A stretch of DNA of 33,548 nt from Escherichia coli (GCF_003334815.1 NZ_QOWO01000040.1); one strand, 5' to 3'; positions 10,012-10,695 are shown, counted from the first letter of the stretch. Translations and numbers: made by a program. The notes: a model not told the origin generated them from the sequence alone.

Positions 10012-10045
10012 ATAAAAAAAGGGGCTTTCTGCCCCTTTGTATTTT
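10012..10045. terminator. Intrinsic terminator (aaaggggc tttct gcccctttg between A-run and T-run)
   Basis: Read directly. Confidence 0.6.
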
Positions 10046-10074
10046 TTGACAAAAATGCCATGCGTAACTATAAT
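10046..10074 (+). promoter_or_regulatory. Consensus sigma-70 promoter (TTGACA, 17-bp spacer, TATAAT) for the hicAB pair
   Basis: ttgaca at 10046-10051 and tataat at 10069-10074; ATG about 29 nt downstream. Confidence 0.65.
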
Positions 10075-10102
10075 TAGTTGCATATCTATAGGGGATGGAT
10101 TT

Positions 10103-10351
10103 ATGGGGAAAACAGATAAGCTACTGGCAAAGTTTTTAAACAGTAAAAAAACGTTTGAATGGGATGAACTGGTCGTTTTGTTTTCCTCTTTGGGATATGT
10201 CAAAAAGGAAATGCAGGGGTCAAGAGTGCGGTTTTTCAATGCTGAAATCAATCACACCATATTAATGCATCGTCCACATCCGGAAAGTTATATCAAAGGT
10301 GGTACGCTGAAAGCAATTAAACAGAATCTGAAAGAGGCTGGATTATTATGA
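10103..10351 (+). CDS. hicA: HicA-family toxin (mRNA interferase type)
   Basis: 82 aa; C-terminal ...HPESYIKGGTLKAIKQNLKEAGLL resembles the HicA signature; 4-nt overlap with downstream antitoxin. Confidence 0.6.
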   Translation: MGKTDKLLAKFLNSKKTFEWDELVVLFSSLGYVKKEMQGSRVRFFNAEINHTILMHRPHPESYIKGGTLKAIKQNLKEAGLL

Positions 10352-10695
10352 AACATTTAAAATATAAAGGATATTTAGGCACGGTTGAACCCGATTTTGA
10401 AAATAATGTTCTGTATGGAAAACTGGCGTTTATTCGGGACCTGGTAACTTATGAGGCTTCTACATTAGCTGAACTGGAACAGGAGTTTAAAACATCGGTT
10501 GATCTGTATTTACAGTCTTGTGTGGAGGATGGAAAGGAACCTGATATCCCGTTTAAAGGCGTGTTTAACGTCAGGCTTGATCCAGAACTGCATCGTCGGG
10601 TAGCAGAAATGGCGATGGAAGAAGATTTATCGTTGAATGCCTTTGTTAATAAGGCTCTGGAAAAAGAAGTCAGCAATCATCGCGCAGGGGCTTAA
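10348..10695 (+). CDS. hicB: HicB-family antitoxin (N-terminal HicB fold, C-terminal RHH-like)
   Basis: YKGYLGTVEPD ... Q/EFKTSVDLYLQSC ... ELHRRVA pattern typical of HicB-like antitoxins. Confidence 0.6.
   Translation: MKHLKYKGYLGTVEPDFENNVLYGKLAFIRDLVTYEASTLAELEQEFKTSVDLYLQSCVEDGKEPDIPFKGVFNVRLDPELHRRVAEMAMEEDLSLNAFVNKALEKEVSNHRAGA

Follow-up and report, generated by a model that had tools for sequence, protein, structure and literature searches.

A 33,548-nt stretch of Escherichia coli DNA (NZ_QOWO01000040.1; the window hereafter) carries, at positions 10012–10695, a pair of overlapping genes that is very probably the HicA(O)B module known from IncX4 plasmids, a self-contained cassette of the type II toxin-antitoxin class. 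The HicAB operon is already described, annotated and experimentally tested, its textbook promoter included, and as a known module it mainly confirms that the window is standard IncX4 backbone. New details are a conserved palindrome, likely an operator, over the -10 box and an arginine, Arg41, in place of the catalytic histidine of HicA; truncated hicB copies on IncI2 plasmids are a new point added here. Among plasmids that carry mcr-1 and further last-line resistance genes, IncX4 is a major group, and hicAB counts among the few accessory modules of its backbone.

In the mechanism we propose, one perfect-consensus sigma-70 promoter would give a single hicA-hicB mRNA with no internal terminator, and an ATGA overlap would couple translation of hicB to that of hicA. 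[quoted passage not shown] Upon plasmid loss, or displacement by a competitor without the module, free HicA would act.

The cassette and its IncX4 setting

The same module was named HicA(O)B in work that defined it from pJIE143 and tested it from p14EC007a (Lin et al., Nucleic Acids Res 2025, PMC11878559). HicA(O)B is described there as having ORFs that overlap and no internal terminator, and as predominating on IncX4 plasmids (PMC11878559). The window pair shares the overlap and the lack of an intergenic terminator, resembles p14EC007a and sits on an IncX4 backbone. The module of plasmid p14EC007a (CP024132, locus L012 of our comparison) is 99.2% identical to the window pair at the nucleotide level, and the two have the same HicA (WP_000520549.1). 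The HicAB of pJIE143 (JN194214) reportedly goes back to Bustamante and Iredell (J Antimicrob Chemother 2019).

On the plus strand, hicA occupies 10103–10351 (ATG at 10103, TGA at 10349–10351; 82 aa) and hicB 10348–10695 (ATG at 10348, TAA at 10693–10695; 115 aa), the two ORFs sharing the four nucleotides ATGA at 10348–10351. The first-pass annotation had read exactly this layout, an 82-aa HicA-like and a 115-aa HicB-like gene overlapping by 4 nt, and the 4-nt overlap is kept in distant homologues (loci L005–L009 and L011). Reading of the sequence placed a purine-rich, Shine-Dalgarno-like stretch, AGGGGATGGA (10090–10099, plus strand), 5' of the hicA ATG, and a Shine-Dalgarno-like AAGAGG for hicB (10332–10337, plus strand) within the 3' end of hicA. 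Together, the AAGAGG site and the ATGA overlap imply that translation of hicB would be coupled to translation of hicA.

Hairpins mark both ends of the cassette. Upstream, a terminator scan and an inverted repeat identify AAAGGGGC-TTTCT-GCCCCTTT at 10018–10038, with T-runs on both sides; the hairpin has 8 pairs, 5 of them G-C, and scored on both strands. It resembles an intrinsic terminator acting in both directions, which would shield the cassette from plus-strand genes upstream, and the first coordinate of the region as initially delimited, 10012, coincides with it. Downstream, the scan found GCAGGGGC-TTAATT-GCCCTTGT followed by a T-run (10684–10713, plus strand; hairpin 10684–10705), a terminator-like structure that overlaps the hicB stop codon and closes the cassette ahead of the oriT region. 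No terminator-like site was detected between 10103 and 10348. A structured element in hicA mRNA, of the kind present in the IncI2 module HicA(T)B, was likewise not found, the structure score of this mRNA being not unusual (z = 0.68).

The IncX4 and IncI2 copies of the cassette are homologous over window positions 10044–10710, that is, from 2 bases before the -35 hexamer through the terminator T-run. These limits are those of promoter and terminator, and therefore the conserved unit is the functional unit. A search of Rfam at a permissive threshold gave no match across 9000–12000, and the region thus has no known RNA component, whether antisense or of type I/III. Opposite-strand ORFs at 9979–10251 and 10449–10676 were set aside as shadow ORFs: they have no support, and the genes that contain them are under strong purifying selection.

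The window has the backbone of a conjugative IncX4 plasmid, and its nearest records are typed IncX4, MOBP and MPF_T. The cassette is preceded by a J-domain protein gene and small genes for hypothetical proteins, and is followed by ddp1/taxA, taxC for the MobP1 relaxase, a PixR-like regulator and type IV secretion system (T4SS) genes. Between hicB and taxA lies a 91-nt inverted-repeat arm (10954–11044) that is 99% complementary to an arm at 3860–3950 near the replication gene. Two oriTs within long inverted repeats, in inverted orientation, are a hallmark of IncX plasmids (PMC3402527). The 91-nt repeat fits this layout, and hence the first-pass annotation was right to suspect an oriT-like site downstream of the module: the site is real, and its arm immediately precedes ddp1/taxA and taxC. 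From the end of the cassette to this oriT-bearing arm is 259 bp, and the cassette is oriented as the upstream block. As a separate observation, NZ_CP024861.1 is 98.8% identical to the window from 9810 on and is mosaic upstream of hicAB.

The cassette is widespread on plasmids. A 1.1-kb region containing it matched 1027 PLSDB records, almost all from conjugative plasmids of Enterobacterales, and was at least 99% identical in 318. A sensitive search with the cassette itself returned 847 plasmid records, about 380 of which were 80–90% identical and mostly plasmids of IncI2 size. Among complete E. coli genomes, 445 of 5426 carry the cassette, at 469 plasmid and 11 chromosomal sites.

Promoter and candidate operator

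The hicA promoter consists of a -35 hexamer TTGACA (10046–10051) and a -10 hexamer TATAAT (10069–10074), both found by promoter scan on the plus strand and separated by a 17-nt spacer. The TTGACA, 17-bp spacer and TATAAT reported at first pass are therefore exact, with 12 of 12 consensus matches over 10046–10074. At one mismatch or fewer, the 29-nt TTGACA-17-TATAAT pattern has this as its sole site on both strands of the 33.5-kb window; shuffled sequence yields 0.44 sites per window at the same tolerance, and an exact match by chance is estimated at roughly 0.01 per window. Across five diverged homologous loci with unrelated flanks, TTGAC of the -35 hexamer is invariant and the -10 region is also kept. 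A further locus, in Avibacterium (L010), has its hicA interrupted by an IS1595-family element, and the promoter comparison there was uninformative. Consistent with the scan, the IncX4 hicA promoter has been called perfect (-35 TTGACA, N17, -10 TATAAT) and has been reused as a strong promoter (PMC11537010, Microbiology Spectrum 2024).

Overlapping the -10 hexamer is a palindrome, GTAACTA-TAAT-TAGTTGC (10064–10081, not assigned to a strand), with 7-nt arms and one mismatch. Searched as GYAACTA-N4-TAGTTRC with up to two mismatches, the motif is single in the window, and no second copy was found there. In diverged loci, GYRACTA-N4-TAGTTRC sits 35–46 nt 5' of the hicA ATG, a position conserved across seven loci. 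Loci bearing it comprise the IncI2 copy, two chromosomal loci of Photorhabdus, a Salmonella plasmid contig, an Acinetobacter plasmid, which carries two copies of the palindrome, and a Nitrincola-like contig. Proteins of the palindrome-bearing loci are only 52–74% identical to those of the window, and the flanking DNA is unrelated. The palindrome at 10064–10081 is likely the operator for the RHH domain of HicB. Another palindrome, TTTTTG-A-CAAAAA over the -35 hexamer, is not conserved in other loci and was taken as chance.

Published transcript levels fit tight autorepression. [quoted passage not shown] The candidate operator is of practical interest as well, concerning as it does the very strong PhicA promoter already in use as a genetic tool.

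The HicA and HicB proteins

The HicA-like and HicB-like labels given at first pass held up under HMM assignment. HicA matches PF07927 (HicA_toxin) at E = 1e-11 (45.2 bits; model positions 1–58 of 58, residues 20–81), and HicB matches PF05534 at E = 4.7e-20. In PHROG, HicA matches phrog_8887 ("toxin") at E = 3e-34; NCBIfam had no model matching it. The AF2 model of HicA (pLDDT 96.1) comprises helix 20–29, strands 32–36, 41–46 and 51–56, and helix 66–79, that is, a dsRBD-like alpha-beta-beta-beta-alpha core, together with an extra N-terminal helix (3–13). Foldseek matched the model to 1whz and 6g26_E (B. pseudomallei HicA) with probability 1.0 and TM (target) of 0.66–0.71. At the sequence level the relationship is remote: a single-sequence search of PDB sequences with HicA found no HicA, and a family profile of 115 members finds B. 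pseudomallei HicA in PDB only at E = 0.01. Against the IncI2 copy, which is 88% identical, dN/dS is 0.027 for hicA and 0.060 for hicB, which is strong purifying selection on both genes.

Assignment to the HicA toxin family (PF07927/COG1724) is secure. The protein would be a HicA-fold (dsRBD-like) ribonuclease. According to a review, ribosome-independent RNase activity is known only for the HicAs of E. coli, Y. pestis, S. meliloti and S. pneumoniae, and our literature search found no report of RNase activity for the IncX4-type HicA subfamily.

The two domains of HicB differ in how readily they are recognized. PHROG matched HicB to phrog_9151 ("HicB-like antitoxin") at E = 6e-49 and its C-terminus to Arc-like repressor families at E = 1e-4. 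Over the RHH region (residues 72–112), Pfam matches are weak (Antitox_RHH, E = 0.046; RHH_1, E = 0.48); in NCBIfam, YlcI_YnfO_N was reached at E = 8.5e-6, below its cut-off, and RHH matches were sub-threshold only. A single-sequence PDB search gave only a weak CopG-family chain (9kkd, E = 0.054), and a HicB family profile found no solved relative among PDB sequences. The AF2 model (pLDDT 86.9) has helices at 79–91 and 96–114 following a VFNVRL strand segment. By Foldseek, the N-terminal fold resembles 6g1n_C and 6g26_A (B. pseudomallei HicB) and 2dsy (TTHA0281), with probability 0.98–1.0 and a modest TM of 0.38–0.65, and the C-terminus resembles CopG (1ea4, probability 0.97) and Arc (1bdv, 0.93). 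Weak but concordant sequence matches and this fold similarity point to a C-terminal RHH DNA-binding domain in HicB. The PF05534 family of the RHH class corresponds to "Class 4" of Gerdes.

The G-S-H motif of characterized HicAs contains the one histidine validated as essential, which is His24 in the B. pseudomallei protein, His28 in HicA3 of Y. pestis and His36 in the S. pneumoniae toxin. The window HicA reads G39-S40-R41 in place of the canonical motif and thus lacks the catalytic histidine at this position. A profile alignment sets its G-S-R on the G-S-(H24A) of 4c26 and 6g26, and hhalign sets it on the SSH of the IncI2 toxin HicA(T); both alignments also pair the downstream P-H-P motif. Position 41 is Arg in 104 of 126 subfamily members and His in 1 of 126. 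The subfamily columns for His56 and His59 hold histidine in 122 and 124 of the 126, respectively, and H56, P58, H59 and P60 are near-invariant. In the lone member whose motif is SSH, position 56 is Ala. Compared with B. pseudomallei HicA, the window HicA has two inserted residues, one of them His56, which, from DSSP strand limits in the model (E41–46/E51–56), is predicted to lie on beta-3 as the cross-strand partner of residue 41 on beta-2.

His56 may have taken over the role of the histidine missing at Arg41. With the validated catalytic residue absent, the toxic mechanism could differ from that of other HicAs. The designation "canonical HicA RNase" is accordingly a weaker claim than "HicA-family toxin", because the defining catalytic feature is lacking. 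A toxin subfamily without the sole catalytic residue validated for HicA poses the question of how it kills.

Biological role and comparison with known systems

The test suggested at first pass, toxicity of hicA alone and rescue by hicB, has a published, positive outcome for an identical HicA: the p14EC007a protein proved toxic to E. coli K-12 cells, and its own HicB neutralizes it fully (PMC11878559). The addiction role suggested alongside stands only in part. In its favor, cured cells of an IncX4 resolvase (res) mutant were obtained only with hicB and relB supplied in trans (PMC11537010). Against it, the wild-type plasmid prevailed over its deletion derivative by only 3:1 after 80 generations (PMC11878559), and for pJIE143 a part in plasmid maintenance was rejected, according to a review. 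Effects measured in the literature are weak, with a small competition gain and no clear vertical-stability role.

A reading that joins the protein and plasmid observations would make the IncX4/Haemophilus-type HicA a mechanistically distinct branch in which the catalytic histidine has moved to His56, perhaps with a different RNA specificity. On this view, the oriT-adjacent site and the truncated, toxin-binding hicB remnants of rival IncI2 plasmids would stem from a contest of toxin and immunity among co-circulating mcr-1 plasmids and not from classical addiction. We regard this combination as unlikely.

Conjugation or plasmid-plasmid conflict on its own might be the main role, early re-expression in the recipient, with the toxin gene first and a strong promoter, providing a brief pulse of HicA or fast immunity and excluding plasmids without hicB; we consider this distinctly unlikely. 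The adjacency to oriT and the orientation shared with the upstream block would suit such a role, but the two IncX oriTs are inverted relative to each other, and either end might enter first, and hicAB is not among the genes essential for IncX4 transfer (PMC8725589). The related but distinct IncI2 module HicA(T)B drives plasmid-plasmid competition, whereas the effect of HicA(O)B itself is the small one given above, 3:1 at generation 80 (PMC11878559). Many IncI2 plasmids retain only a truncated hicB(O) without the DNA-binding domain, which is expected if immunity to the HicA(O) toxin has value; truncated IncI2 forms include WP_223286768.1 of pHZ004 and an 88-aa protein. These copies might confer cross-immunity between competing resistance plasmids, but they may also be mere decay.

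Phage defense by abortive infection, also raised at first pass, is very unlikely as the main function. Here, HicA would be freed when a phage shuts off host transcription or when HicB is degraded, and by destroying RNA it would halt the infection. Type II toxin-antitoxin systems, including genes with HicA domains, have been proposed as defense elements from genomic context (bioRxiv 10.1101/2023.12.08.570793, and a review), and extended-HicA relatives occur in the immunity regions of lambdoid phages (mEp234, HK106) and in other phages, forming PHROG families. The weak addiction phenotype, too, leaves scope for another role. However, PADLOC assigned neither protein to any of its families, and thus to no known defense model, and the neighbors are replication, leading-region-type and transfer genes with no defense genes among them. 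No experiment ties any HicAB to phage protection, validation being still needed according to the review. Activation through antitoxin decay is further argued against by the reported persistence of a HicB, of unstated plasmid origin, over as long as 12 h in lysates of K-12 (PMC11878559).

A chance or decayed ORF pair with a coincidental promoter match is refuted: consensus scans that allow mismatches do yield promoter-like sites at the chance rate, but HMM, fold and literature support is strong, dN/dS is 0.03–0.06 for both genes, and the cassette is kept in more than 800 plasmid records and in those 445 complete E. coli genomes.

The HicA(O)B toxin-antitoxin cassette remains our preferred reading, and it can be set against other HicAB systems. 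The chromosomal operon of E. coli K-12 is served by two promoters, and its HicB is of the helix-turn-helix type; the window pair has a single consensus promoter and an RHH-type HicB. The K-12 pair is also toxin-first, and its HicA is a ribosome-independent mRNA interferase (review). The HicAB of Burkholderia pseudomallei (6G26, 4C26, 6G1N) provides the best structural matches for both window proteins, with G-S-x and P-H-P motifs aligned, at identities of only about 24% (HicA) and 9% (HicB). Its HicA requires His24, whereas the window HicA has Arg41, the extra helix 3–13 and the two-residue insertion with His56.

HicA(T)B of the IncI2 plasmid pHNSHP45 is likewise a toxin-first pair on an mcr-1-era conjugative plasmid, with Pfam HicA and HicB domains and a toxin that is toxic and neutralized (PMC11878559). 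Protein identity to the window module is below 26% (PMC11878559). HicA(T) has 60 aa and a canonical S-S-H motif, in contrast to the 82 aa and Arg at the catalytic position of the window HicA. An intergenic intrinsic terminator splits the HicA(T)B genes, raising the toxin-to-antitoxin ratio, and plasmid competition is strong; the window genes overlap, have no such terminator and belong to a module with a weak competition effect.

Another relative is the hicAB of Haemophilus influenzae, the "hif-contiguous" locus that founded the family. The window HicB is 62% identical over 94% of its length to the H. influenzae HicB, Q9LA69; the H. influenzae genes are chromosomal and the window pair is plasmid-borne. 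Relatives in Pasteurellaceae have HicB proteins of the same size as that of the window. HicA(O)B of p14EC007a is the same system, with 100% identity in HicA, 114 of 115 identical residues in HicB and the same backbone place between the J-domain block and taxA/taxC. The window pair differs from it only by Ile67 of HicB, where the common allele present in p14EC007a has Thr, and by one base of the promoter spacer, C10063 in place of T.

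Intact and truncated hicAB(O) on IncI2 plasmids

The overlapping hicA(O)/hicB(O) toxin-antitoxin cassette carried by the IncX4 window is found intact, at 88% identity, in some IncI2 plasmids, as exemplified by pECJS-61-63 (L002, NZ_KX254342; 3021-3659), where the perfect promoter and the putative operator are the same as those of the window. The L002 cassette lies downstream of a block of J-domain and hypothetical genes. The same block precedes the cassette in IncX4, and is thus common to both plasmid groups. Many IncI2 plasmids have lost hicA(O) together with its promoter and retain a hicB(O) with an internal 62-bp deletion that eliminates the RHH domain. 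This truncated gene occupies 2906-3286 of pHZ004 (L003, NZ_MN476095). Residues 1-81 of the encoded protein share 91% identity with HicB of the window, and an 88-amino-acid form (P0193) is common (201 member sequences, 118 contigs). The hicB(O) remnant resides upstream of HicA(T)B, an unrelated pair, at a distance of roughly 850 bp. It could be undergoing decay, or it could serve as an orphan fragment providing immunity to HicA of IncX4 plasmids.

Allelic and regional variation around the cassette

Two positions distinguish the window's cassette from the common IncX4 allele. Position 10063, the promoter spacer base directly before the operator palindrome, is C in the window versus T in the common allele. 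Position 10547 is T versus C, giving Ile rather than Thr at HicB residue 67, which is situated in the linker preceding the RHH domain. Variation is also seen upstream of the pair. Plasmid NZ_CP024861.1 (L004) has exactly the length of the window (33548 bp), yet its sequence differs: window positions 8460-9810, upstream of hicAB, form a mosaic block with only short matches at 96-98%, and identity from 9810 onward is 98.8%. Within IncX4 backbones, the small genes directly upstream of hicAB seem to form a variable site.

Operator copy number and additional toxin-related genes

In the homologue on Acinetobacter plasmid p8_010034 (L009), the operator palindrome occurs twice, at a spacing of 33 nt, within 1468-1518 (GCAACTATGGATAGTTGC and GTAACTATACTTAGTTGC), in contrast to the single palindrome of enterobacterial loci. 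This disparity suggests that repression stoichiometry differs between them. In the representative library, the HicA query matched a metagenomic protein of 1115 amino acids (P0046) in six separate stretches (E=2e-11), which suggests that HicA-like domains are repeated within it. Among IncX4 plasmids, the closely related, cargo-free p2009C_3689-2 (L013, NZ_CP074897.1) has an annotated DinQ-like type I toxin gene, dqlB (3574-3669), downstream of hha and an H-NS-family gene.

The inverted repeat flanking hicAB

Between hicB and the nearby arm of the oriT repeat, a hairpin with a perfect 9-bp stem is present at window positions 10779-10800 (CGTTACGGC TTCA GCCGTAACA, plus strand), with its minus strand scoring as a terminator-like site. 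The repeat itself is inverted, measures 91 nt and shows 99% complementarity between its arms (3860-3950 and 10954-11044), which are spaced 7003 nt apart; one arm is directly upstream of ddp1/taxA-taxC, the other is close to the replication gene, and the intervening segment contains hicAB, the J-domain block and rep. IncX plasmids typically harbor two oriTs inside long inverted repeats (PMC3402527), and the arrangement in the window matches this published organization.
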